64,000 nt of DNA from contig JAFWVQ010000020.1 of NCBI GenBank assembly GCA_017523925.1, positions 12,062 to 76,061 on the forward strand, given 5' to 3'. The stretch comes from Clostridia bacterium (GTDB lineage Bacteria; Bacillota; Clostridia; Christensenellales; CAG-138). This document shows, piece after piece, positions 50,628 through 64,000 of the stretch (within the stretch, counting starts at the first letter, position 1; the number at the start of each line of letters is the position of its first letter). Below the pieces are notes generated by a model that ran no database searches, had not been told where the DNA came from, and saw only the letters and a program-made list of their open reading frames with translations. Made by a program: the position numbers and the translations under genes.

Positions 50628-51362
50628 CTATTTTTTGAGATAGGCGCGGATCGCGGAGCGTGCGAACTGCGCCGTGCCTTCGCCGCAGCGACGATCGATA
50701 TTCGCCTTGAAGCGCTCATCATGAACGTACATTTCGCCAAGCCCGGATAAGATCTCATCGGTGCAGTTATAGAAGTTCGCGCTTATATAGCGTTGAAGCG
50801 ATCCTGCTGCGGCCAGTGCTTTTTCGCCGCATTCCGACTCGCCTTGCCTTAAAAGCTCGCCAAAGCCGTCAAATATCCGCATAAGCCCATCTGCCGCATC
50901 TGCGCACTCTGCTGCGTTTCCTGTGCCGTTCTTCTGCTCAAATTCGCGATATGCCTCGGTTCCGCCCCAGCGTTTTCTCGCTTCCTCGGCGTATTTCTCC
51001 ATTTCTCCTCTGTCAAAGACCGAAAAATCCATAGTTTCATCTCCTCTCAATTGTTTTTCAATATGCTCGATCAGCCTGTTGAGCCGCTGTGCCTTGAGTT
51101 TAAGCAGCTCACACTGATCCCTTAACGCCGCCTTTTCATTGAAGGATGGCGAATCAAGCAGCGCTTTGATCTGAGAAAGCGGCATCTCAAGCTCGCGAAA
51201 CAGCATTATGGTTTCAAGCCGTTTCAGCGTCGCATCATCATACAGCCTGTAACCCGCTTCGGTGAGCTTGGCAGGCGGCAAAAGCCCTATCGCATCATAA
51301 TGATGAAGCGCCCGAACGCTTATCCCCGTCAGCTTGCTGACCTGCTTTACTGTTTTCATCAT
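50628..51362 (-). CDS. MerR family regulator with TipAS-like domain (Mta/TipA-like)
   Basis: VSKLTGISVRALHHYDAIGLL...GYRLY; C-terminal GLGEMYVHDERF...G.AQF. Confidence 0.92.
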   Translation of the reverse strand: MMKTVKQVSKLTGISVRALHHYDAIGLLPPAKLTEAGYRLYDDATLKRLETIMLFRELEMPLSQIKALLDSPSFNEKAALRDQCELLKLKAQRLNRLIEHIEKQLRGDETMDFSVFDRGEMEKYAEEARKRWGGTEAYREFEQKNGTGNAAECADAADGLMRIFDGFGELLRQGESECGEKALAAAGSLQRYISANFYNCTDEILSGLGEMYVHDERFKANIDRRCGEGTAQFARSAIRAYLKK

Positions 51363-51384
51363 GTTTTCCGCCTCCTTTCCCAAT

Positions 51385-51415
51385 ATTATAAACTATAACG
51401 CTGCGTGAGTGTCAA
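51385..51415 (-). promoter_or_regulatory. MerR-type promoter with 19-bp spacer and operator dyad
   Basis: TTGACA-ctcacgcagcgttatagtt (19 nt)-TATAAT. Confidence 0.8.
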
Positions 51416-51487
51416 GATGTTATCTGAAAGAAAACCAAAACTGCGTCTGATATCGAGCAGCAATTAAGTAAAGTTCTTTTGCAAACA

Positions 51488-51520
51488 AAAAAAATCGGAG
51501 CCGAGATCGGTTCCGATTTC
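51488..51520 (-). terminator. rpmE terminator
   Basis: aaatcggagccg-agat-cggttccgattt with U-tract on the minus strand. Confidence 0.75.
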
Positions 51521-51536
51521 TTTATAGCTTGGTGTT

Positions 51537-51737
51537 TTAGTTCATGCCGTAGCGCTTCTTGAACTTATCAACGCGTCCGCCGCTGTCGACCAGCTTCTGA
51601 CGGCCGGTGTAGAAGGGGTGGCACTTGGAGCAGATTTCGACCTTGAGCTCGCCCTTGACGGAACCGCTCTTGAAGGTCTCACCGCAGGCACAGCGAACGA
51701 TGCTCTCGCCGTAGGAAGGATGGATGTCCTTTTTCAT
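51537..51737 (-). CDS. rpmE: 50S ribosomal protein L31 (zinc-binding form)
   Basis: [27 protein letters not shown] motifs. Confidence 0.97.
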
Positions 51738-51915
51738 TGCTTTCTCCTAATTTTTGGACAGAGGTCGGATGTTTGCTCTGTCTCTAAACTCTTGACGATG
51801 TAACAGCATCATCAAGGCAAAACTTATTATATCACGCAGCATAAGCAAAACGCAATACGATATTCGATAAAAACGCAATATATTTTAACATTTTTCTATA
51901 CATTGCGTTCACCCT

Positions 51916-52734
51916 CTATCTGAACACGCCATGCTTTAGTTTGATCCTTCCAAGCTTATTGAGCAGCGGCTTTGTGAGGATGAGCAGGAAGAACACGGTC
52001 GCCGCCGCAAAGATAAGGTTCATCGGAAGACCCGATGCGTATGCGGCAAGAAACATCTCCCACGTCACGTTTTGGGCTGCGGAGAAAACGTACTGGGTGT
52101 CCATTATCTGCCCGTAGATGCCGACGGTCGCAAAAGCGCCGAATGCACAGAGCAGGAAGAGCTTCCATTTTGATTTGATCTGATCGTTGAAAAGGATGCC
52201 GGAAAGAAAGCCGATCAGCCCGAGCGCGAACATCTGCCAGGGCGTCCAAGGACCCTGACCGAAGAAGAGGTTTGAAACGAAAGCAGTCAGCGCGCCGGTG
52301 ATGAAGCCGGCCTCGCTTCCAAGGGAAACGCCGGTGATTATGACTATCGCCGCGATGGGTTTGAACTGGGGAAGCATCGCAAAAGCGGCCCTGCCGGCAA
52401 CGCCCAAGGCGACCATGACCGCGATAAGCGTCAGCTCCCGCGCTCTCGGGCGGCGCTTTTCAAACACAAAGAAGAACGGCACCATCGAAAACAGGATTAT
52501 CAGCATCGAAACGATATAATACTGCCGATCATGCCATTCGAGCATGCCCACAAGCACAACGCTCGGCACAAAAACGAGTATCAGCACCGCCGAAACTATG
52601 CGCCGTATCAGCCTGCGCTTTTTCTCGTCCGCCTCCATACGCGCGCGAAGCCGCTCGGCTGCAAGAATGCGCTCGTCCGTGCCGCCGCCCGTCATATCAT
52701 GCATGTTCTGTTTTTCATGCGCTGCTTCGTTCAT
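51916..52734 (-). CDS. ECF transporter S component (CbrT-like, probably cobalamin)
   Basis: RELTLIA...GRAAF..LPQFKP, VSNLFFGQGPWTPWQM motifs; lies in a B12-riboswitch operon. Confidence 0.85.
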   Translation of the reverse strand: MNEAAHEKQNMHDMTGGGTDERILAAERLRARMEADEKKRRLIRRIVSAVLILVFVPSVVLVGMLEWHDRQYYIVSMLIILFSMVPFFFVFEKRRPRARELTLIAVMVALGVAGRAAFAMLPQFKPIAAIVIITGVSLGSEAGFITGALTAFVSNLFFGQGPWTPWQMFALGLIGFLSGILFNDQIKSKWKLFLLCAFGAFATVGIYGQIMDTQYVFSAAQNVTWEMFLAAYASGLPMNLIFAAATVFFLLILTKPLLNKLGRIKLKHGVFR

Positions 52735-54476
52735 TGTTCGATCTGTATTCCGCCTTCCGCTGCTTTTACCTTGTCTATCAGCTCCGAGGCCGTTACCGCG
52801 CCGTCCAGTATGCCGTTTGCGATGCGCGCAGCGACCGTGGTGTAAAAATTATTCCCGGAAAGCACAGCTTTCGGCGTTCCGTCCGCGATAACTCCGCCAT
52901 CGAAGAACATTGCAATGCGGTCGGCGAATTCGGCGCAAAATTCGATATCGTGCGAAACAAGGACTATCGCGGTGCCGCGCGAAGTAAGCCGTCTAAGCAG
53001 AACGCCGAATTTTTCCTTGAAAAATGCGTCCATGCCCTTTGTGGCTTCATCAAGAAACAGCACGGATGGCTCGAGCAGCAAAAGCTTTGCGATCGCAGCA
53101 CGCTGCAGCTCACCGCCGCTGATGTCGTATGGGTTTCTGTCGATGATCGAGCCGATCTCCATTAGCGAAACGATCTCATCCAGCTTGCTCGGCTCGAGCT
53201 TATTTCTGTTAACAACGGCTTCAAGCTCCTCGCGCACGCTGTCATGAACGAAGCTCAGTATCGGGTTTTGCAGCAAAACGCCAACGCGCTTGCCGAAAAG
53301 CTCGCCGTCTGAGTATTTGCCTATCGGCTTGCCCTCAAGGAGCACCTTTCCGCGATAGGGCTTATACATGCCGGACGCCGTCATGATGGCTGTGGTTTTG
53401 CCCGCACCGTTTCCGCCGATGATGCAAACAAGCTCTCCCAAACGAACGTCGAAAGAAGCACCCTTGAGAATATCATCGGAGTTGCGTTCGTAGCGGTACC
53501 AGACCTCACGCATCGAAAGCACCGGCTTTTCATCGAAGCCTGCCTTGGAAGCGACCGGTTTCCTGCCTGAATCGAGCGCCGTGGCTTTCCGAACTTTCCC
53601 GCCCGTTTCAGCGGTTTTCTCAAATGATGCCCCATTTTCAGAAAGCGCGGCTTTAAGGTACTGCCTTCCCTCGCGAACCGTCAGCGGGGCGGGGAAATCC
53701 TTCATGCTCTCGGGGCGGGTCCTTGCAAAAAGTGTCATCGCTGTCGGAAGGACGGAGTATAGCTCCGAATCGCCTTCCAATAATTCCGCGCAGCTTCGCG
53801 GACTGCCTGAGTAGTATATGCCGCCGTTTCGCATGAAAACGACCTTGTCGGCAAGCGGAAAAAGCCCCTCGACACGATGCTCGGTTATCACGATCGTTGT
53901 GCCGAGCTCGCTGTTTATACGATGGAGTGTATCGAAAAAATCCGCAGCCGCGATCGGATCGAGCTGGCTCGTGGGCTCATCGAGGATCAAAAGCTTGGGC
54001 TGCATCACCATTACCGAAGCAAGGCAGAGAAGCTGCTTCTGACCGCCGGAAAGCTCGGAAACGGGGGAGTTGAACCACTTCTGTATCCCAAAGAAATTTG
54101 CCATCTCGGCCACGCGCACGCGCATCGTCGCCTGATCCGTGCCGAGGCTCTCAAGCCCGAAGGCGAGCTCATGCCAAACCTTGTCCGTTGCGATCTGCAT
54201 CTCGGGATCCTGCATAACGAACCCGATCTCGGCTGTCTGCCTGCGCAGATCGAGCGCTTCGATCGGCTCGCCATTGAAGATGACAGCTCCGCTCACCTCG
54301 CCGTAAGCGCTCAAAGCGGGCTTCATTCGGCGAAGCAGCGTGGATTTTCCGCAGCCCGAAGGCCCCGCGATCAGCACGAATTCACCTTCGTTGATAGTGA
54401 GGTCAATATTTGAGAGCGCGGCGGCTTCCGCGCCGGGATATAGGAAGCTCAGAGCTTTGATCTCGACAAGTGCCAT
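52731..54476 (-). CDS. ECF transporter duplicated ATPase
   Basis: GPSGCGKS/LSGGQKQ/DEPT and GGNGAGKT/ISGGE/DEAT. Confidence 0.9.
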   Translation of the reverse strand: MALVEIKALSFLYPGAEAAALSNIDLTINEGEFVLIAGPSGCGKSTLLRRMKPALSAYGEVSGAVIFNGEPIEALDLRRQTAEIGFVMQDPEMQIATDKVWHELAFGLESLGTDQATMRVRVAEMANFFGIQKWFNSPVSELSGGQKQLLCLASVMVMQPKLLILDEPTSQLDPIAAADFFDTLHRINSELGTTIVITEHRVEGLFPLADKVVFMRNGGIYYSGSPRSCAELLEGDSELYSVLPTAMTLFARTRPESMKDFPAPLTVREGRQYLKAALSENGASFEKTAETGGKVRKATALDSGRKPVASKAGFDEKPVLSMREVWYRYERNSDDILKGASFDVRLGELVCIIGGNGAGKTTAIMTASGMYKPYRGKVLLEGKPIGKYSDGELFGKRVGVLLQNPILSFVHDSVREELEAVVNRNKLEPSKLDEIVSLMEIGSIIDRNPYDISGGELQRAAIAKLLLLEPSVLFLDEATKGMDAFFKEKFGVLLRRLTSRGTAIVLVSHDIEFCAEFADRIAMFFDGGVIADGTPKAVLSGNNFYTTVAARIANGILDGAVTASELIDKVKAAEGGIQIEQ

Positions 54477-55336
54477 CTGTATGCCTCGATAGAATTCATA
54501 ATTACTGGAATCAAAAGCGTTATCGCGTATATGGCGCAGAACGCAATAAACAACGGAGTGACTTCATTGATCTTAAAGGATGGGAAGAAACGTATGCTGA
54601 TAAGCTTGAAGCCGGATGCGAGCGCAGAGCAGAGCATGCCAAGCGCCAGCAAGCCGCCGATCAGCGCATCCCTGCCGTCGAAGCGGTAGTTTGCAAAGCT
54701 CCTTCTCGGGTGCAGCCCGTAGCCCCTTGCGCGCATGGAATCAGCAGTGGTCACGGAGGTCTCAAGCCCCCAAGTGATCAGCGATGATAGTATGCTGAGG
54801 CCGCTCCTTGCACGCTTTATGACGCTGCCGCCGCCCGTTCCCATGCCCGCGCCGCGCTGCGCATAGGATATTCGCTTGGCCTGGCGTGAAAAGAGCGGAA
54901 CAAAGCGAAGCGCCATCGAGACCACTAGCGATATCGAGGGCGCAAACCTGCCGAGCAGATAAACTATCTTGTCGCTGGTAAATATTTGATTAAAGCATGC
55001 AAACCACAGCACGACCGAAGCGAGCATGGCAGCCGAAGAAGCGCCGTACACGATCGATTCGAGAGTAACGGGATTGTGTCTGAGGTAGAAAAGGGTCGTG
55101 ATGCCGGCATGGTTGAACAGCGGGTTCAGTATCGCCGTAAGAAGCATTATCGGAAGTACGAATTTGAGTATATAACCAATTGCCTTACGGCCGCGCAGCA
55201 TGAAAAGCCATATGAGCGCACAAACAAGAGATATGCCCAAAAGAACCGGATGCATAACAAGCATCGGCATGATAAGAGCGAACGCAAAGAATACGAACGC
55301 AACGATCGGATTTACAGTATCAAACGCATCGCGCAT
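54449..55336 (-). CDS. ECF transporter T component
   Basis: ILNPLFNH, ALRFVP, ADSMRARGYG motifs. Confidence 0.88.
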   Translation of the reverse strand: MRDAFDTVNPIVAFVFFAFALIMPMLVMHPVLLGISLVCALIWLFMLRGRKAIGYILKFVLPIMLLTAILNPLFNHAGITTLFYLRHNPVTLESIVYGASSAAMLASVVLWFACFNQIFTSDKIVYLLGRFAPSISLVVSMALRFVPLFSRQAKRISYAQRGAGMGTGGGSVIKRARSGLSILSSLITWGLETSVTTADSMRARGYGLHPRRSFANYRFDGRDALIGGLLALGMLCSALASGFKLISIRFFPSFKINEVTPLFIAFCAIYAITLLIPVIMNSIEAYRWHLSRSKL

Positions 55337-55352
55337 CTGAAAGGCAACCTCA

Positions 55353-55967
55353 TCAATTTACGGGTGTCGGTGTGGCGTCCGCGTCGAAAATGCAGCCGAC
55401 GTCAACGCCGAAATCGCAGGTGTAGTGCCATTCAACAACATCCCCGTTATTGAGGTTGTATTTGCTGCAGCCGTAGTTCGGGAATTTGCCGTTGACGGAA
55501 TAGGTCCAGCCGCTTCCCTCGCCGCAGTCAAACTCATAAAGATTGTTTATGCCCTTTATATATGCGCTGTCGTAAACGGGTGTATAGGATGCATCCATAT
55601 GGATCTTTCGAGCCATAAGCTCGCGCACCAAAACATCGTAAACGCTATCGCCCTCGTTGAAGATGATCGTGCACTTTTCAAGTATGATGCCGTTCTCGGG
55701 GAGCACCTCAAGTTTGTCCTTGTTGAACTTTTCCATATTGTTCAGAATAGTGGTGCACTCGATATAGAACGTACAGCAAAGCGCTTCCGTATCCTCACCG
55801 GAAGTCGGGGAAGGGGAGGCGCTTTCGGATGAAGCCGGTGAAGCGGGGCCGTTCTCACGATTCGCGCAGGCAGGCGCAAAAGCAATTATGAGCGCGAGCA
55901 AAAAAGCAATGACCTGCAAGGGAAAGGGAAACCCGGCGATTTTATTAAAATTGCAATATGATTTCAT
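55353..55967 (-). CDS. DUF4430 (transcobalamin beta-domain-like) lipoprotein
   Basis: APAC putative lipobox; YIKGINNLYEFDCGEGSGWTYSVNG.FP.YG...WHYTCD. Confidence 0.85.
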   Translation of the reverse strand: MKSYCNFNKIAGFPFPLQVIAFLLALIIAFAPACANRENGPASPASSESASPSPTSGEDTEALCCTFYIECTTILNNMEKFNKDKLEVLPENGIILEKCTIIFNEGDSVYDVLVRELMARKIHMDASYTPVYDSAYIKGINNLYEFDCGEGSGWTYSVNGKFPNYGCSKYNLNNGDVVEWHYTCDFGVDVGCIFDADATPTPVN

Positions 55968-56036
55968 AGTATTTTGATTAAAGCAAAATATGCAATGAAC
56001 GGGCACGGCGGCCCATTCATTGCTTAAAGTTAAAGC

Positions 56037-57734
56037 TTATTGTCTCTTTCGTGATGCGATAAAGAGGAATATGCCCGCCACGGCTACAATGCCGCCGATG
56101 CCGGCCGGAATGATCCACTTGAGGCTCTCGCGCCTCTTGCTGTTATGACCGTTCCAATCTCCGCCGGTAATGTTGATGGGATCAAACGTAAGCTCGGGGA
56201 TCGCGGTGGGGTCGGACGTATCAGCAGGAGTGGGTTCCGCAGGCGGAACAGTTGCGGTCGCCTCAGGCTCGGGCGTCTGAGAAGCTTCCGGCGTATCGGA
56301 GGGCTCTGCCGATTCCTCGGGATCGCCGCTGCTGTCGGGCTGATCAGTGTCTATCGGCTCATCGGAAGCATCCGGCAGATCGGTAGGTTCTTCCGAAGCA
56401 AACGGTGTTTCGTTCGGATCGACGGGAACATCCGAAGGCACATCGGTGGGGATCGAAGTCGGGGTCGAAGTCGGAGTCGGAGAAGGCGCATAATACGGCG
56501 TCGGCGAAGGCGTGGGGGTGTTTGTCGGCCGCGGCGTCGGCGTATTTGTGGGTCTCGGAGTCGGGCTCGGACTTGGTGTGGGCGAGTTAGTCGGCCTCGG
56601 CGTAGGCGTATTTGTGGGCCTTGGAGTCGGAGTTGGGCTCGGACTGGGCGTGGGAGTTGGACTCGGACTCGGAGTGGGAGTCACGGGCTCGACCGGAGTA
56701 ATCGTTATAGGCGGAATGACGGCCCCCGGAGAATACAGGGGAACATCGTTCATATTGAAGAGCGCATAAGCACCGCGCCTGTATCTGTCATAGGCGCAGA
56801 GCGAATACGCCGCCTGCTCGGTTGCCATGCCGTTGATCTCACCGCCGATCGTGTGCGAAAAGCCGGGGGATACGAAGAACGAAAGAAGCGCGTCCACTAC
56901 TGATTTGCCGTGCTTAACAAAGCGAGCGTCGCTGCCCGCATCGATATTCAGCGTGCTTAGAGCAACTATCACCCAGGCGCAGCTCTCGGCATTGGGGCTG
57001 CCATAGCTGGAAAAGCTTCCATTTGAATTCTGCATGGAGGAGAGCTTACTCACGCCTCTATTGATAGCTGCTCGCGCGGATGAATAAGGCGCAAGAGCAG
57101 TCATAGCCATTGCGGTGATGTCCGGATCGGCGTTGCTGCCGAACATTGCCCAGCCTCCTCCTGAGATCTCGCGCTCGAGAATGTAGTCCACACAGCGATT
57201 CTTGATAGAATTCATGCCGTACATGCTCTTGCTGCTGAGCGCGAGCAAGGTGAAGATAGCGCCGTTGATCCCCTGATGAACGTCAAAATCGAAGTTGCTC
57301 AGCGGGGCGGTGAGGTCATAGTCACCGACTTCACGCGCATCGCGCCCGATCGAAGTCAACGCGATGATAACTCTGGAGTTGTCGGTGGAAACGGAGCCGA
57401 GCGTCGGGCTGCCGTTGGTTCGAACGATCCTATCGATCTGAGAATAGTAGGTGTCAAAATAGCTGCTGTCCGCCTGAAGCCGTCCGCTTCTTGCAAGAGC
57501 CAAAACCTTCCATTCGCCGCCGATGCTGCCATACGCCGGGGCGCCCGTTGAATAGAGGTAGTCCAAAACGGTGTTGTACTGAACTGTGTAGGATACCGCA
57601 ACTGACCCATGTCCGGAATCGGCCGTGACCGCAGAGAATATCGGTGCAGCAGAGAACAAAACAGCAAGCACCACTGACAATGTGCGGGCGAAGATCAACC
57701 CCGTTTTAGTAAAATAGCTTTTCAATACAGCCAC
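56037..57734 (-). CDS. Surface protein with prenyltransferase/squalene-oxidase-like alpha-barrel, Pro/Thr stalk and C-terminal TM anchor
   Basis: Signal peptide; EWKVLALAR, QGINGAIFTL, DITAMAMTALAPY, LSSMQNSNGSF, NAES, MATEQA motifs; PT repeats; TM followed by RKRQ. Confidence 0.8.
   Translation of the reverse strand: MAVLKSYFTKTGLIFARTLSVVLAVLFSAAPIFSAVTADSGHGSVAVSYTVQYNTVLDYLYSTGAPAYGSIGGEWKVLALARSGRLQADSSYFDTYYSQIDRIVRTNGSPTLGSVSTDNSRVIIALTSIGRDAREVGDYDLTAPLSNFDFDVHQGINGAIFTLLALSSKSMYGMNSIKNRCVDYILEREISGGGWAMFGSNADPDITAMAMTALAPYSSARAAINRGVSKLSSMQNSNGSFSSYGSPNAESCAWVIVALSTLNIDAGSDARFVKHGKSVVDALLSFFVSPGFSHTIGGEINGMATEQAAYSLCAYDRYRRGAYALFNMNDVPLYSPGAVIPPITITPVEPVTPTPSPSPTPTPSPSPTPTPRPTNTPTPRPTNSPTPSPSPTPRPTNTPTPRPTNTPTPSPTPYYAPSPTPTSTPTSIPTDVPSDVPVDPNETPFASEEPTDLPDASDEPIDTDQPDSSGDPEESAEPSDTPEASQTPEPEATATVPPAEPTPADTSDPTAIPELTFDPINITGGDWNGHNSKRRESLKWIIPAGIGGIVAVAGIFLFIASRKRQ
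56460..56690 (-). repeat. Pro/Thr-rich coding tandem repeats (TPSPSP / TPRPTN)
   Basis: TPTPSPSPTPTPSPSPTPTPRPTNTPTPRPTNSPTPSPSPTPRPTNTPTPRPTNTPTPSPTP. Confidence 0.85.
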
Positions 57735-57806
57735 CTCAAGAACAAAAGAATTTTTCGGCAGAAAGAGCTTTCCGAGAATACTATTAAAGCTCCTTGCCGA
57801 TCCCCT

Positions 57807-57835
57807 CGGGACGGCGTTTATCCAGCCGTCCCGAA
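57807..57835 (-). terminator. Intra-operon hairpin downstream of the dockerin gene
   Basis: tcgggacggc-gtttatcca-gccgtcccga. Confidence 0.5.
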
Positions 57836-57881
57836 GAAATTATATCAGAAAATAATCTGTGAAAGTATCGATCCGATCGGA

Positions 57882-58895
57882 TCAGGAAATATTGAGCGCG
57901 GCGCGAAGCGCGGTGAGCGCGTCGAGCGTGGTGATGCTGCCGTTGCCGTCAACATCCGCAGCGCCGACGAATTCATCGTCGATCTGAGCAACACCCATCG
58001 CATGGCGAAGGATCATGAGCGCATCCGCAACGGAAACAGCGCCGCTGCCGTCAACATCGCCGGGAAGAACGCCGCCCGCAAGCGCAGCCTCAAGCGCGGC
58101 AAGCGCGGCATCGATCGCGTCCTGACCGTTGTCAAGATCGGTGAGGGTCTCAACGAAAGCAACGTATTCATCGTAGGCCTGTCCGCCCTCGGCTACCATA
58201 GCCGCAAGCTCGGGATCGGCAGCGATCTCGGCATAAAGTGCGCACGCAGCGTCGCGGTCAACGAGGTAGGAAGGATTCTCGAAGGGAGCGAACATGCCCC
58301 AGCCGTCGTTGATGCCCACGTCCATACCCCAGCCGTAGATGGAGTACATCCAGCGGTAAACAACACCGTTCTCAACGGTAACGCCGTCCGCGCCAACGTC
58401 GGGCGAAGCATTGCCGGCAACGTTCATCCAGCCGGAATAATAGGTGTATTCCATCTGGGAGAGGATGCCGTCGCCGTTTTCGGGATTGTACCAATCGCCG
58501 GTATCATCGTCGTAGCAGCCGAAGTTATTCTCAAGCTCGGGAGCGAGATACTCGGGAACAACGATCTCTTCGCCGTTTGCAAGCTGTTCGCAGGCAACGC
58601 CGGTGAGATAGAAGCCGTACTGAGAAAGCTGATAATCGCCATCAACACCGGCAGTTTCGAGCAAACGAACGGTAACGTCCGCAAGGCTCTCACCCTCATG
58701 ATAGGGAACGAGAGTGGGCTCGATGATGAAGCCCCAGCCGAGAACGAAGACCTCGAAATCTACAACGACGTAGCCGTCATAGCCATCGGGAACTTCGGGC
58801 ATGGTGCGCACCTCGGCGGAAACTGCGCCGAATGCAAGGGTGAGGAGAAGCGCCGCAGCAACAGCAGCGGCAAGAAGCTTTTTGTAGATTTTCAT
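57882..58895 (-). CDS. Secreted DUF4430-like protein with C-terminal type I dockerin
   Basis: Signal peptide; FIIEP, SGWM, YRWMYSIYGWG; duplicated Ca-binding GDVDGSGAVSVADALMILR / ADVDGNGSITTLDALTALR. Confidence 0.8.
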   Translation of the reverse strand: MKIYKKLLAAAVAAALLLTLAFGAVSAEVRTMPEVPDGYDGYVVVDFEVFVLGWGFIIEPTLVPYHEGESLADVTVRLLETAGVDGDYQLSQYGFYLTGVACEQLANGEEIVVPEYLAPELENNFGCYDDDTGDWYNPENGDGILSQMEYTYYSGWMNVAGNASPDVGADGVTVENGVVYRWMYSIYGWGMDVGINDGWGMFAPFENPSYLVDRDAACALYAEIAADPELAAMVAEGGQAYDEYVAFVETLTDLDNGQDAIDAALAALEAALAGGVLPGDVDGSGAVSVADALMILRHAMGVAQIDDEFVGAADVDGNGSITTLDALTALRAALNIS

Positions 58896-59033
58896 ATTAC
58901 AATACCTCCGTGTATTATTTTTTTAGGGGTCTACAATCCCCGCGCGGCGGCGAAAGCGGAAAGCTCATGAGCCCGAGATCGCGAAGATCCCGAGCATCAC
59001 AGCAGCACGCATCGGCAGCCGCATTGAAAGGTA

Positions 59034-59248
59034 GTACACGGCAGGTCTCCTGGCTTCCGGATAAGCCTACTTGCCCCGCCTTCCCAAGCTAAGCGCTAAG
59101 TGGCGGTATGGGGCTTTCGTGGCCGGTTACAGTAGCGGGGTCTGCTGCGGCATTGCACCGCATTCCCTTTTAACCGCGATGCTTTAAACGCAAAAAGCAT
59201 GCCAATCGACTAATTGCGATCAGCAAAAGCACCGTTCGGACCGTATCT
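59034..59248 (-). ncRNA. Cobalamin riboswitch
   Basis: Minus strand GGTGC...TTAAAAGGGAATGCGGTGCAATGCCGCAGCAGACCCCGCTACTGTAA...CCAC...GGGAAGG...GAAGCCAGGAGACCTGCC (B12 box). Confidence 0.92.
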
Positions 59249-59266
59249 GCCTGTTCAATTGAGCTC

Positions 59267-59295
59267 AGTATATCAAACTCCGTGCGCTTTGTCAA
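59267..59295 (-). promoter_or_regulatory. sigmaA promoter upstream of the riboswitch
   Basis: TTGACA-17 nt-TATACT with extended TG. Confidence 0.75.
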
Positions 59296-59415
59296 CATTT
59301 ACGGAAAATACAGTAAGGCGCGCTGTATATTAAAAACAAAAGCGCGGCCAACACTTTTTGTGGATGACCGCGCTAAAGCAACAATTATTGTAGAATCGTA
59401 TCGAATATCGAATCA

Positions 59416-60624
59416 CTAAAACAGCAGTGAAACGAGCTTGAACAGCCAGTTTGCGGCAAAGCCCGCCGCAAGACCGCCGACAGTGTGGCTGATTATCGCC
59501 TTGCCGGTCATTTCGGGACGGCGAAGCGCCTGCATCATGGAGGCATGGGTGGAAAGGTAGCCGCTCCAGCACATGCACATCGCGGTGAAAACGGCGATAT
59601 CGTGTGCGTTCACGAGACCCGCTGCGGAGAGCTCCTTGACGATGCCCGTTGCGGCGCCGGCGGAACCGAGCGCGGTTATAGGCACTGCGACGGATTCACT
59701 TGAAGCGAAGCCGAATATGGGCTGAAGGATGAAATTGATCTTTTCGGCGATAAGCGGAAGAAGCCTGATTCCCTCGAAAGCCGCGCCGGTGTAGCTCCCG
59801 TCCGGAGATGGCCCTTTGGTAAGAAGCATGACAACTGTGCAAACGACCACAACGCCGGGAATGATCGCAAGTCCTATGTCAACGCCGTTCTTTCCGCCGT
59901 TGAGCGCGGCGTTGAGAACGCGCATGCCGATGCCCACCTTCTTGCTGTCGCCGGTGGATGCGGAGCCCGCGATGACGGGCACGTTGTCCTCGTATTCCTC
60001 GGTACCAAACGCTTTCTTAGTCTGCATGAGCATGAGCCTTGTGCTGACGATACTGCCGATAACTGCGCCGATGTTTCCTATAAGAACGGCGATAACGACG
60101 TTTCCGCCTGCTACGTTCAAGCCGAGCATGAAGGTCGAAACGATCACGCCCATGCCGAACGCGGTGCCGAGATTGGTCAGCGCATAGAACTGATACTTCT
60201 TAAAATACTTACGGAAGCCCGAGTCCTCCGCAAGCGAAAGGATGGCGGGGTTATCCGAAAGATACGTCGTAACGATGCCGAGCGCCGCAGCGCCGGGAAG
60301 CCCGTAGAGCGGCTTCATAAGCGGGTTGAGCAGGTTGTTCAAAAGCGCAACTACGCCGAACTCGGTCAGAAGCGCCGCAACTGCGCCCATTATGACGGCG
60401 ATCGCCATTATGTACAAACAGGTATCAACAAGCAGCGCAAACGCCGTGTTCATAATGGTACTCAGCGCATTGGAAAGCCCCATCGGGATAGCAAACAGAA
60501 GCATCAGTCCGATGAAGATCACGAGAAAAATAAGGGGAGACAGCCAGAATTTCAGCTTCGATACGCGAGCGGGGGATGCGCCCTCCGTATTCCTTTTAAG
60601 CTTAGCTTTCATAACCTTAAGCAA
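59416..60624 (-). CDS. Polytopic membrane protein (nucleoside-recognition gate-like, CD0519/CD1768-type)
   Basis: About 10 TMs; TTYLSDNPAI, NLGTAFGMG, CMCWSGYLSTH motifs. Confidence 0.65.
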   Translation of the reverse strand: MLKVMKAKLKRNTEGASPARVSKLKFWLSPLIFLVIFIGLMLLFAIPMGLSNALSTIMNTAFALLVDTCLYIMAIAVIMGAVAALLTEFGVVALLNNLLNPLMKPLYGLPGAAALGIVTTYLSDNPAILSLAEDSGFRKYFKKYQFYALTNLGTAFGMGVIVSTFMLGLNVAGGNVVIAVLIGNIGAVIGSIVSTRLMLMQTKKAFGTEEYEDNVPVIAGSASTGDSKKVGIGMRVLNAALNGGKNGVDIGLAIIPGVVVVCTVVMLLTKGPSPDGSYTGAAFEGIRLLPLIAEKINFILQPIFGFASSESVAVPITALGSAGAATGIVKELSAAGLVNAHDIAVFTAMCMCWSGYLSTHASMMQALRRPEMTGKAIISHTVGGLAAGFAANWLFKLVSLLF

Positions 60625-61764: not shown

Positions 61765-61881
61765 TAGCTTTCGATCGAACACAATAAGCGCAGCTCAAAT
61801 ATATTTGCCTGAGCGAACAGAAAAACGTATAATAAAATATTGCAAAATCGAACAGCAAACAGCCTAAGGCGGGAAAATGCT

Positions 61882-62712
61882 ATGATAAGAACGAACAATA
61901 TTGAATACAGCTATGACGGCGCGGAAAGAAAAGCGCTGGATGGAGTCAGTCTCGAGATCCGTGAAGGGGAATTCGTTGCGATAGTCGGGCACAATGGCAG
62001 CGGCAAATCCACTCTCGCCAAGATGCTCAACGCGCTGCTTCTGCCCGATGCCGGTGTCGTGAGCGTTTTCGGGATGGACACCTCGGACGAGGAGCTGACG
62101 CTCGACATTCGCAAGAAGGTCGGCATTGTGTTTCAAAACCCCGATAATCAGATCGTTACCACCGTTGTTGAAGAGGACGTAGGCTTCGGACCCGAGAATC
62201 TCGGCGTACCGACGCAGGAGATCGTCGAGCGTGTCCACAGTGCGCTCGAGGCTGTCGGGATGCTCGATTACGCGAAGCATGCGCCGCATATGCTCTCGGG
62301 CGGTCAAAAGCAGCGCATAGCCATTGCCGGAGTGCTTGCGATCGACCCGGACGTGCTCGTTTTCGATGAGGCGACCGCGATGCTCGATCCGCTCGGCAGA
62401 AGAGCCGTAATTGATATAGCATCACGGCTAAATAAGGAGAAGGGCAAGACCGTGGTTATGATAACCCAGTATATGGAGGAGGTCACCGCCGCAGACCGCG
62501 TTATCGTGATGAGCGGCGGAAAGATCGCCATGACCGGAACGCCCGAGGAGATCTTTAGGCGCGGCGATGAGCTGAGAGCCCTGCGGCTCGACGTGCCCGT
62601 GATGGTGGAGCTGCGCGAAATGCTTGAGAAGGACGGGATCATTCCCGTGACCGATGCGCTTGAAGTTGAGGAGATGGCGGAGGTAATATGCCCATTGTTG
62701 TTGAAAAACTGA
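61882..62712 (+). CDS. ecfA1: Energy-coupling factor ATPase EcfA1
   Basis: GHNGSGKS, FQNPDNQ, LSGGQKQR, DEATAMLDP motifs. Confidence 0.92.
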   Translation: MIRTNNIEYSYDGAERKALDGVSLEIREGEFVAIVGHNGSGKSTLAKMLNALLLPDAGVVSVFGMDTSDEELTLDIRKKVGIVFQNPDNQIVTTVVEEDVGFGPENLGVPTQEIVERVHSALEAVGMLDYAKHAPHMLSGGQKQRIAIAGVLAIDPDVLVFDEATAMLDPLGRRAVIDIASRLNKEKGKTVVMITQYMEEVTAADRVIVMSGGKIAMTGTPEEIFRRGDELRALRLDVPVMVELREMLEKDGIIPVTDALEVEEMAEVICPLLLKN

Positions 62713-63539
62713 CGCATACTTATATGCCCAATACCGATAACGAGTTCGTTGCCGTCGAGGATATAACGCTGACCATCAACGAGGGCGAGTTCTTCGGCAT
62801 AATCGGGCATACCGGCAGCGGCAAGTCCACCTTCATCCAGCACCTCAACGGGCTCATGCAGCCTACGAGCGGCAGCGTTACCGTGGACGGCTTCGACATG
62901 AGCGATAAGAAGCAGCGCGCAAAAGGCAGAGCCCGCGTCGGCATGGTGTTCCAGTACCCGGATTATCAGCTCTTCGACAGCACCGTTCTGGACGACGTTT
63001 CCTTCGGTCCGAAGAATATGGGCTTCGCTGCCGACGAGGTCAAGCAGCGTTCGCTCGAAGCCATGCGAATGGTCGGTCTCGACCCCGAGGTATTCGCCGA
63101 AAAATCGCCCTTCGAGCTCTCGGGAGGCGAAAAGCGCAGAGCAGCGCTCGCGGGCATAATCGCGATGCGCCCCAAATACCTCGTGCTCGACGAGCCTATG
63201 GCGGGCCTCGATCCCTCCGGCAGACGCGAGATACTCGCTACGATAAACTCGCTTCGCGACGAGCTCAAATGCACCGTTATCATGGTCAGCCACTCCATGG
63301 AGGACGTGGCGCACTCCGCTGAGCGCATAGCGGTGATGAACGACGGCAAGCTCTACGCGCTCGGCACGCCGGACGAGATATTCTCAAAAACCAACGAGCT
63401 GATCTCACTCGGGCTCGATGCGCCCAGGACCGCGCGCCTTGCACAATTGCTTCGCGAACGCGGCTGCGACGTGCCCGAGGATATCTATACGAACGAGCGC
63501 TTCGTTGAATGGCTGAAGAGGAGGATGAAAAATGCTTAA
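62688..63539 (+). CDS. ecfA2: Energy-coupling factor ATPase EcfA2
   Basis: GHTGSGKS, FQYPDYQLF, SPFELSGG, DEPMAGLDP motifs. Confidence 0.92.
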   Translation: MPIVVEKLTHTYMPNTDNEFVAVEDITLTINEGEFFGIIGHTGSGKSTFIQHLNGLMQPTSGSVTVDGFDMSDKKQRAKGRARVGMVFQYPDYQLFDSTVLDDVSFGPKNMGFAADEVKQRSLEAMRMVGLDPEVFAEKSPFELSGGEKRRAALAGIIAMRPKYLVLDEPMAGLDPSGRREILATINSLRDELKCTVIMVSHSMEDVAHSAERIAVMNDGKLYALGTPDEIFSKTNELISLGLDAPRTARLAQLLRERGCDVPEDIYTNERFVEWLKRRMKNA

Positions 63540-64000
63540 GGATATCACCCTCGGTCAGTACGTTCCGGGAGATTCCGTGCTGCACAGGCTCGATCCGCGC
63601 ACGAAGATACTGCTGATGGTTGCCTATATCGTGGCGGTGTTTCTCGTTAAAAGGATAGAGGTCTTCCCGATCATCATAATCTTCACCATAGCCGTGACCC
63701 TGCTTTCGCGCGTTCGGCTATCATACATCTTTAAGGCGCTCAAGCCCATGAAGCTGATACTGCCGCTGATGTTTCTGATGAACCTCTTTCTCATCAAAAC
63801 CGGCGATCTGCTCGTTGAATGGTGGATCTTCCGTATTTATAAGGACGGTCTTATCAACGCCGTTTTCATCGTGCTGCGCCTTGCGACCCTCGTGACCGGC
63901 ACGAGCCTTCTTACTCTCACCACCACTCCGATCGCACTCACGGACGGCCTTGAAAAGCTGCTGACACCGCTGAAGATCATCAAATTCCCGGCGCATGAGC
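63532..64000 (+). CDS. ecfT: Energy-coupling factor T component (partial, runs off the window)
   Basis: MLKDITLGQYVPGDSVLHRLDPRTK...LLTLTTTP...GLEKLL.PLK; not in the ORF track because no stop lies in the window. Confidence 0.9.
   Translation, partial: MLKDITLGQYVPGDSVLHRLDPRTKILLMVAYIVAVFLVKRIEVFPIIIIFTIAVTLLSRVRLSYIFKALKPMKLILPLMFLMNLFLIKTGDLLVEWWIFRIYKDGLINAVFIVLRLATLVTGTSLLTLTTTPIALTDGLEKLLTPLKIIKFPAHE

Follow-up and report, generated by a model that had tools for sequence, protein, structure and literature searches.

Bacterial transcobalamin-type beta-grasp (SLBB) proteins with signal peptides were described by Burroughs, Balaji, Iyer, and Aravind in 2007 (Biol Direct 2:4; PMC1796856), who report an alpha/alpha toroid fused to the beta domain in either order, a second SLBB paralogue in the same operon, and CbiO and CbiQ neighbour genes in hosts without B12 synthesis, and propose B12 scavenging as well as a bacterial ancestry of the animal B12 carriers. 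A related arrangement was presented by Verplaetse et al. in 2019 (bioRxiv 10.1101/864751) for Lactobacillus sakei, where an S component, a fused A-A' ATPase, a T component, and exported beta-like and alpha-like proteins (Lsa1836-1840) are encoded in one transcription unit; the alpha-beta heterodimer was modelled as passing its ligand to the S component, and the system was assigned to haem. Transport of vitamin B12 has been demonstrated for the energy-coupling factor (ECF) transporter ECF-CbrT of Lactobacillus delbrueckii (structure 6FNP; Santos et al. 2018, eLife 7:e35828; PMC5997447), whose accessible text presents CbrT as a group II S component on a general ECF module and mentions no surface helpers. 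The current study deals with an operon at positions 51916..59295 of a 64,000-nucleotide stretch of contig JAFWVQ010000020.1 from a Clostridia bacterium (the window), in which a near-consensus promoter and a cobalamin riboswitch precede six co-oriented genes, g1 to g6, all parts being located on the minus strand.

With the systems of the 2007 paper, the operon shares an exported transcobalamin-clade beta domain, a toroid partner, a second paralogue, and CbiO/CbiQ-like genes. In common with the L. sakei unit it has separate alpha and beta genes together with a dedicated S component, A-A', and T component, and ECF-CbrT provides a homologous S component and the same ECF architecture. The anchors are different, since those reported in 2007 comprise a Gram-positive sorting motif or Ig, FIVAR, fasciclin, or propeller domains, whereas in the window g1 has a dockerin, g2 a membrane helix preceded by a long Pro/Thr stalk, and g3 a lipobox; the word "dockerin" has no occurrence in the main text of PMC1796856. 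The L. sakei unit has one beta protein instead of two and no dockerin or stalk, and the accessible part of the preprint mentions no cobalamin riboswitch. Compared with CbrT, the S component of the window is distinguished by two extra N-terminal helices, by its own T component and fused A-A', and by the company of three surface proteins. The separation of alpha and beta halves, combined with an ECF transporter of their own, was thus already in print, predicted in 2007 and described for L. sakei in 2019, and the novelty that the first-pass annotation of this stretch had implied for the design was overstated. Two features appear to be new, namely a beta domain that is predicted to dock to the cellulosome and the use of anchors at three levels; no report linking a dockerin to a transcobalamin-type or B12-binding protein was found in the literature searched, supplements being outside its scope.

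The operon probably represents a B12-repressed corrinoid acquisition system of a cellulosome-bearing bacterium, and its nearest relatives are found in rumen and gut Clostridia. Uptake of B12 by Gram-positive bacteria is much less understood than that by Gram-negative bacteria with their BtuB, BtuFCD, and BtuG systems, and the operon supplies small, separable domains for binding tests. It would also tie cellulosomes to micronutrient competition in the rumen.

Riboswitch, transporter, and beta-domain proteins

The operon comprises the following parts, given in the direction of transcription:

59267..59295, minus strand: sigma-70-type promoter (TTGACA, 17 bases, TATACT, extended -10 TG; 11 of 12 positions match)
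59023..59216, minus strand: cobalamin riboswitch aptamer RF00174 (114 bits, gathering score 31.5, E 8e-28)
58896..59022, minus strand: expression platform with a GGAGG ribosome-binding site about 10 bases 5' of the g1 ATG
57882..58895, minus strand: g1, 337 amino acids; signal peptide, transcobalamin-type beta domain by modelled fold (residues ~37-196), helical linker (215-272), type I dockerin (278-337)
56037..57734, minus strand: g2, 565 amino acids; signal peptide, alpha6/alpha6 toroid (~46-335), Pro/Thr-rich stalk (~345-535), C-terminal membrane helix (541-559), basic tail
55992..56023, minus strand: stem-loop of 13 pairs, then a weak T tract, between g2 and g3 (from the list of terminator-like sites)
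55353..56006, minus strand: g3, 217 amino acids as listed; signal peptide ending in ...APAC (lipobox-like), Ser/Pro linker, DUF4430 beta domain (119-196)
54449..55336, minus strand: g4, 295 amino acids; ECF T component of the CbiQ family (PF02361, 32.5 bits, cut-off 25), six hydrophobic segments
52731..54476, minus strand: g5, 581 amino acids; fused EcfA-EcfA' (two ABC_tran stretches, 192 bits)
51916..52734, minus strand: g6, 272 amino acids; CbrT-like ECF S component (PF07155, 46 bits)

The match to RF00174 spans the complete model (positions 1-189 of 189) with a covariance-model score above the gathering threshold, and it is the sole one in the genome (2.59 Mb searched). The promoter is the best among 8 promoter-like sites in 51400..59600, a number that is not significant as a count alone (shuffle mean 5.8). 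Both elements that the first-pass annotation had placed at the head of the operon are hence present. In the predicted fold of the leader (59060..58880), the GGAGG ribosome-binding site is paired with the 3' part of the aptamer; the minimum free energy of this fold amounts to -63.9 kcal/mol (z -2.96), and none of 200 shuffled sequences was equally stable. An intrinsic T-run terminator 3' of the aptamer was found neither by the terminator scan nor by sequence inspection nor in the fold. The pairing of the ribosome-binding site and the absence of such a terminator make translational control likelier, and we infer from the fold model that the riboswitch acts on translation rather than on transcription. 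At low intracellular levels of adenosyl- or methyl-cobalamin, the riboswitch would then free the ribosome-binding site, and the operon would be translated.

The three distal genes overlap (g4/g5 by 28 bases, g5/g6 by 4 bases) and correspond to the ECF T, AA, and S components named in the first-pass annotation. g5 is near threshold to both ECF ATPase equivalogs of NCBIfam (TIGR04520, 311 bits; TIGR04521, 290 bits). Among all solved structures, the only significant relative of g6 is the 182-residue chain 6fnp_A (E 5.8e-11; residues 93-269 of g6 aligned to 4-177), with the next match at E 0.29; this chain was taken as CbrT on the basis of its length and of the ECF-CbrT paper (PMC5997447). The CbrT-like core of g6 is preceded by two additional N-terminal membrane helices (residues 46-64 and 73-91), and all 42 related S matches align from g6 residue ~18-50 onward, so that they cover both extra helices. 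Judged from their sequences, g4 to g6 encode a dedicated ECF transporter of the group I type with a CbrT-related S component.

The beta-domain assignment is straightforward for g3, which scores 72.6 bits against DUF4430 (PF14478; cut-off 23.8) and whose family matches DUF4430 in all 29 aligned members. For g1 it is provided by fold and profile. The AlphaFold2 model of g1 (mean predicted local distance difference test [pLDDT] of 80) has the human transcobalamin beta domain 5no0 as its top Foldseek match (E 1.2e-4; TM-score 0.71 on target). With VIA-align, the model matched haptocorrin at Z 12.2 (root mean square deviation [rmsd] 1.9 over 102 residues), intrinsic factor at 11.4, transcobalamin at 10.8, and the Ruminococcus gnavus DUF4430 structure 3u7z at 9.9, with generic beta-grasp proteins at 6.8 or lower. 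The family profiles of g1 and g3 were aligned by hhalign with 97.6% probability (E 3.3e-12), g1 having an insert of ~45 residues, and 13 of 21 members of the g1 family matched DUF4430 in Pfam (best E 6.6e-9). Going by the modelled fold and the family profile, g1 carries a DUF4430/transcobalamin-type beta domain, and "DUF4430-dockerin", as the gene had been labelled, is an appropriate description.

The dockerin of g1 was identified by Pfam (Dockerin_1, PF00404, residues 278-327; 39.3 bits, cut-off 22.9); it holds two calcium-binding repeats (DVDGSG... and DVDGNG...), and its model matched solved type I dockerins at Z ~11 (2ccl_B, Z 11.2, rmsd 1.2). Searched by sequence against the solved structures, g1 found matches limited to the dockerin and EF-hand-like repeats, and the best match of g3 was to a DUF3289 protein at E 0.011 only; neither search returned a cobalamin carrier. 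The signal peptides of close g3 relatives end in SAC, FAC, SGC, PGC, or TAC, which fits the lipoprotein proposed in the first-pass annotation, and in more remote relatives the lipobox-type signal peptide is replaced by an N-terminal helix that looks uncleaved. In the alignment of the g3 family (g3 residues 76-205), most members keep cysteines in the motifs C-T...I-x-C, FDCG, YGCS, and YTCD, and C197 is found in at least 90% of the members. These cysteines may form disulfides or contribute to cobalt ligation.

The animal carriers transcobalamin, intrinsic factor, and haptocorrin (PDB 2bb5, 2pmv, 3kq4, and 4kki) resemble the operon products in the beta fold (Z 10.8-12.2) and in the alpha6/alpha6 fold class of the toroid, which has no sequence match to them. 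They consist of a single soluble chain with the alpha domain followed by the beta domain, whereas the operon encodes the alpha half (g2) and the beta halves (g1 and g3) as separate, exported, and anchored proteins, two with a beta domain and one with the toroid, as had been recognized before.

Related loci and the host genome

Among 7,999 candidate proteins scored in the toroid search, 2,693 were homologous at the cut-off of E <= 0.001. In precomputed matches, the best 120 of these homologues had a dockerin in 34 cases and DUF4430 in 4; fusion of beta domain and toroid was confirmed by Pfam, with DUF4430 in 5 of 7 toroid homologues scanned. A collection of species genomes yielded 605 matching stretches, 521 of which encode a toroid relative, and the best 80 led to the 75 loci that were used for context counts, the six window proteins being mapped by phmmer to all open reading frames (ORFs) of these loci. 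Clostridia, Paenibacillus, Bacillus, Tissierella, and Ureibacillus are among their hosts.

Of the 75 loci, 69 have one or more beta-type ORFs, and 35 encode beta domain and toroid within a single ORF, with either domain first and tandem arrays included. Such natural fusions are a classic sign that parts work together and, as far as gene content can tell, would indicate this for the toroid and the beta domain. T, A, and S components are all present in 41 loci, and the gene order toroid, beta, T, A is retained in 32. The layout of the window, in which a g1-type gene (beta-dockerin) stands first and the toroid gene second, was found in 11 loci (L010-L018, L029, and L043), all of which belong to uncultured rumen or gut Clostridia and six of which have the whole six-gene set. 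The EcfA-A' ATPase and the CbrT-like S component are fused in one ORF of ~750-940 amino acids in nine of the 75 loci (L033, L055, L058, L065, L067, L078, L082, L031, and L047). A covalent tether between ATPase and S component is odd, since ECF S components are thought to topple and dissociate.

For the riboswitch survey, 56 loci were searched with Rfam RF00174 at gathering score and the remaining 19 only with an nhmmer profile built from 14 aptamers. The Rfam search was positive for 23 of the 56 loci (7, 6, 0, 2, 3, and 5 in the six batches), and the loci searched by nhmmer only were positive in 19 of 19 cases. In total, 42 of the 75 loci thus have a cobalamin riboswitch, which in 40 cases is upstream and shares the strand of the operon. 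Among the 32 loci that retain the order toroid, beta, T, A, 22 have it, as do 10 of the 11 loci arranged like the window. About half of the sampled toroid loci would thus be regulated by B12, in a toroid family that is very large. In two loci, the riboswitch and the toroid and beta genes that flank it lie on different strands (L024:3177-3430, minus strand, 83 bits; L045:6024-6216, minus strand, 89 bits; both of Lachnospiraceae type). In L017, no riboswitch was detected.

The host genome (2.59 Mb in 67 contigs, 94.8% complete) contains one toroid gene and one g1-type gene, both in this operon, and two Pfam matches to DUF4430. One match to CobS and three to the B12-binding domain were obtained, and CbiC had no match, an absence that is not proof at this completeness. 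Judged by gene content, the host fits a corrinoid user and salvager that would be unable to make the ring. Furthermore, the genome has 83 dockerin matches and 21 cohesin matches, 11 of the latter in one open frame of 2036 amino acids, so that the dockerin of g1 has possible partners. The second DUF4430 gene is solitary; it is located on contig C8 (L002:1174-1713, plus strand) and encodes a lipoprotein-like protein of 179 amino acids with a signal peptide ending in ...FAAC. Neither a toroid nor an ECF gene was found within the surrounding 3.2 kb.

The toroid and the alternatives to the proposed corrinoid binding

The architecture of g2 is as formerly described, with an alpha-barrel, a Pro/Thr stalk, and a membrane helix. 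The barrel is confidently modelled (pLDDT 90), the low-complexity stalk is rich in Pro and Thr over ~190 residues, and the hydrophobic segments comprise residues 18-36 and 541-559. Searched by sequence against the solved structures, g2 had matches through the Pro/Thr stalk only, none of them to a cobalamin carrier.

Several results weigh against corrinoid binding as the common task of the surface proteins. With VIA-align, the toroid model is matched best by squalene-hopene cyclase at Z 24.5, followed by drimenyl diphosphate synthase at Z 24; the best 50 rows (Z 19-24.5) include terpene cyclases, sugar epimerases, and glycosidases, and chains of cobalamin carriers are absent among these 50. In Pfam, 28 of 33 members of the toroid family matched SQHop_cyclase_C and 22 of 33 matched Prenyltrans, and Cobalamin_bind (PF01122), the alpha-domain family of the carriers, was absent among the 25 families listed of 43 found. 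On the side of the beta domains, g1 itself had no Pfam match to DUF4430 even at E up to 1. With respect to gene context, L017 and L043 have the three surface genes and no T, A, or S gene within ~8 kb downstream, so the link between the surface proteins and an ECF module of their own is not a strict one. No riboswitch was detected in 33 of the 75 loci, some of which end short on the upstream side and which include the complete operons L022, L023, L030, and L037; control by B12 is thus common but not universal. Finally, the literature searched contained no measured ligand for any protein of this operon family and no measured corrinoid binding for bacterial members of these protein families, and the only such system with genetics, lsa1836-1840 of L. 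sakei, was read as a haem importer (bioRxiv 10.1101/864751).

The transcobalamin likeness put forward in the first-pass annotation is therefore real for the beta domains and appears to extend to the toroid only at the level of the fold. The same division emerged from the proposed Foldseek comparison, in which a transcobalamin structure came first for g1, whereas the toroid model was matched best by a diterpene cyclase, with intrinsic factor at rank three (E 1.6e-4) and transcobalamin at rank 14 amid beta subunits of prenyltransferases. By these comparisons, the toroid appears to be of a generic alpha6/alpha6 kind, with class II terpene cyclases as its nearest neighbours and without a special likeness to transcobalamin, and the case for its binding of corrinoids consequently rests on its context. 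A complex prediction of the toroid (alignment residues 17-306) with the beta domain of g3 (alignment residues 76-217), run without controls or corrinoid, gave scores of 0.01 and 0.00 (mark, 0.32) and weighs neither way on binding.

The structural neighbourhood of the toroid raises the question of an extracellular enzyme, be it terpene-cyclase-like, prenyltransferase-like, or glycan-active, that would modify molecules of the surface or the substrate or would alter corrinoids ahead of their uptake. This would agree with the nature of the best structural matches, with the Pfam matches to SQHop_cyclase_C and Prenyltrans, and with the conserved family motif [DE][PA]D[IVM]TA (ADPDITA in g2), which occupies the place of the DxDD acid motif of class II cyclases. 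However, the fourth Asp of DxDD is missing, being replaced by Ile, Val, or Met throughout the toroid family, the toroid is exported, away from isoprenoid diphosphates, and the partners with which it is conserved are not enzymes but beta domains and a vitamin importer. We consider an enzymatic role extremely unlikely.

Another explanation would leave corrinoid binding to the beta proteins alone, with the toroid serving not as a clamp partner but, for instance, as a spacer or receptor that spans the wall or as a binder for another part of the ligand pool, and with the fusions reflecting co-localization only. A precedent exists in the solved structure 5np4, which shows the isolated beta domain of human transcobalamin with cyanocobalamin, and both the greater structural proximity of the toroid to terpene cyclases than to transcobalamin and the retention of the surface genes without a neighbouring transporter in L017 and L043 are compatible with this view. 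The joint occurrence of toroid and beta domain in 69 of the 75 loci, mostly as neighbours or fused, and their fusion in 35 of the 75 argue against it, as both fusion orders and the tandem arrays fit a two-part binding unit. Moreover, many polar positions are invariant across the family of the toroid (E45, W46, R53, Q125, D176, Q206, E221, D240, R242, K245, H265, Q278, and R288), as would be expected for a conserved ligand site. Binding by the beta proteins alone is accordingly judged to be unlikely, and a joint role of both halves is preferred.

The ligand might also be haem or another tetrapyrrole instead of a corrinoid, as claimed for L. sakei, whose operon has the same five-part layout; according to the preprint, a deletion mutant was made and the system was named an effective actor of haem uptake (bioRxiv 10.1101/864751). 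The 33 loci without a detected B12 riboswitch could be accommodated by such a ligand. The cobalamin riboswitches at the operon of the window and at 42 of the 75 related loci are difficult to reconcile with it, as is the fact that B12-specific CbrT is the only solved relative of g6, and the host has proteins with a B12-binding domain and no match to CbiC in its 94.8% complete genome. Haem as the ligand is very unlikely in our estimation, and corrinoids are retained as the probable substrate.

Anchoring, proposed mechanism, and genomic surroundings

The three anchors proposed earlier, i.e., the dockerin, the stalk with a membrane helix, and the lipobox, are real sequence features. The C-terminal helix and basic tail of g2 recur in its relatives of 440-570 residues, and an LPXTG sorting signal was seen neither in g2 nor in these relatives. 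According to the geometry suggested by the sequences, g1 would be held by its dockerin on a scaffoldin outside the wall, g2 would be fixed in the membrane through its C-terminal helix, with a flexible stalk long enough for crossing the wall, and g3 would be lipid-anchored at the membrane. With the anchors in these positions, one stalked toroid could meet either beta protein. The beta domains, probably with the toroid as the second jaw, would clamp a corrinoid outside the cell in the manner of the two transcobalamin domains, and the CbrT-like S component would receive the bound corrinoid, with EcfT and EcfA-A' powering its import.

An ordered relay is possible by analogy and forms the weakest step of the proposal. 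The Isd haem relay of Staphylococcus aureus consists of NEAT domains, sortase anchoring, and a canonical ABC importer, and transfer between its members has been measured. The operon resembles it only in the idea that binders at different depths of a Gram-positive envelope feed a membrane importer, and it is without those Isd features. A more far-reaching scenario would make the cellulosome double as a vitamin-capture platform. On a bacterium attached to plant fibre among B12 producers, the docked beta domain of g1 would reside at the outer cell face, and the toroid would shuttle corrinoids to g3 via successive alpha-beta clamps and finally to the CbrT-type importer. We regard this scenario as a tentative and rather doubtful extension of the corrinoid acquisition model. 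If it were true, the presence of a dockerin in 34 of the best 120 toroid homologues would point to a common strategy of rumen fibre degraders.

The stem-loop between g2 and g3 (55992..56023) may represent a partial terminator or a processing site and may give g1 and g2 a higher dose than the transporter genes, the evidence being weak because 14 terminator-like sites were found against a shuffle mean of 10.2. The stem-loop overlaps the start of g3 as listed, so that the true start of this gene is probably the ATG 13 codons further in.

Upstream of the operon, the neighbouring gene (59416..60624, minus strand) encodes a membrane protein of the CD0519/CD1768 family (533 bits) without an evident link to B12. 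Downstream, a small ORF resembling ribosomal protein L31 (51537..51737) is followed by a MerR-type regulator (50628..51383, minus strand), for which a link to B12 is likewise not evident. A general ECF ATPase gene is located ~2.5 kb from the operon (61840..62712, plus strand; TIGR04520, 376 bits, cut-off 315), and the two co-oriented ORFs after it (62688..63539 and 63532 to the window end at 64000) resemble the rest of the shared ECF module. Going by these resemblances, the genome would have a shared ECF module next to the dedicated one.

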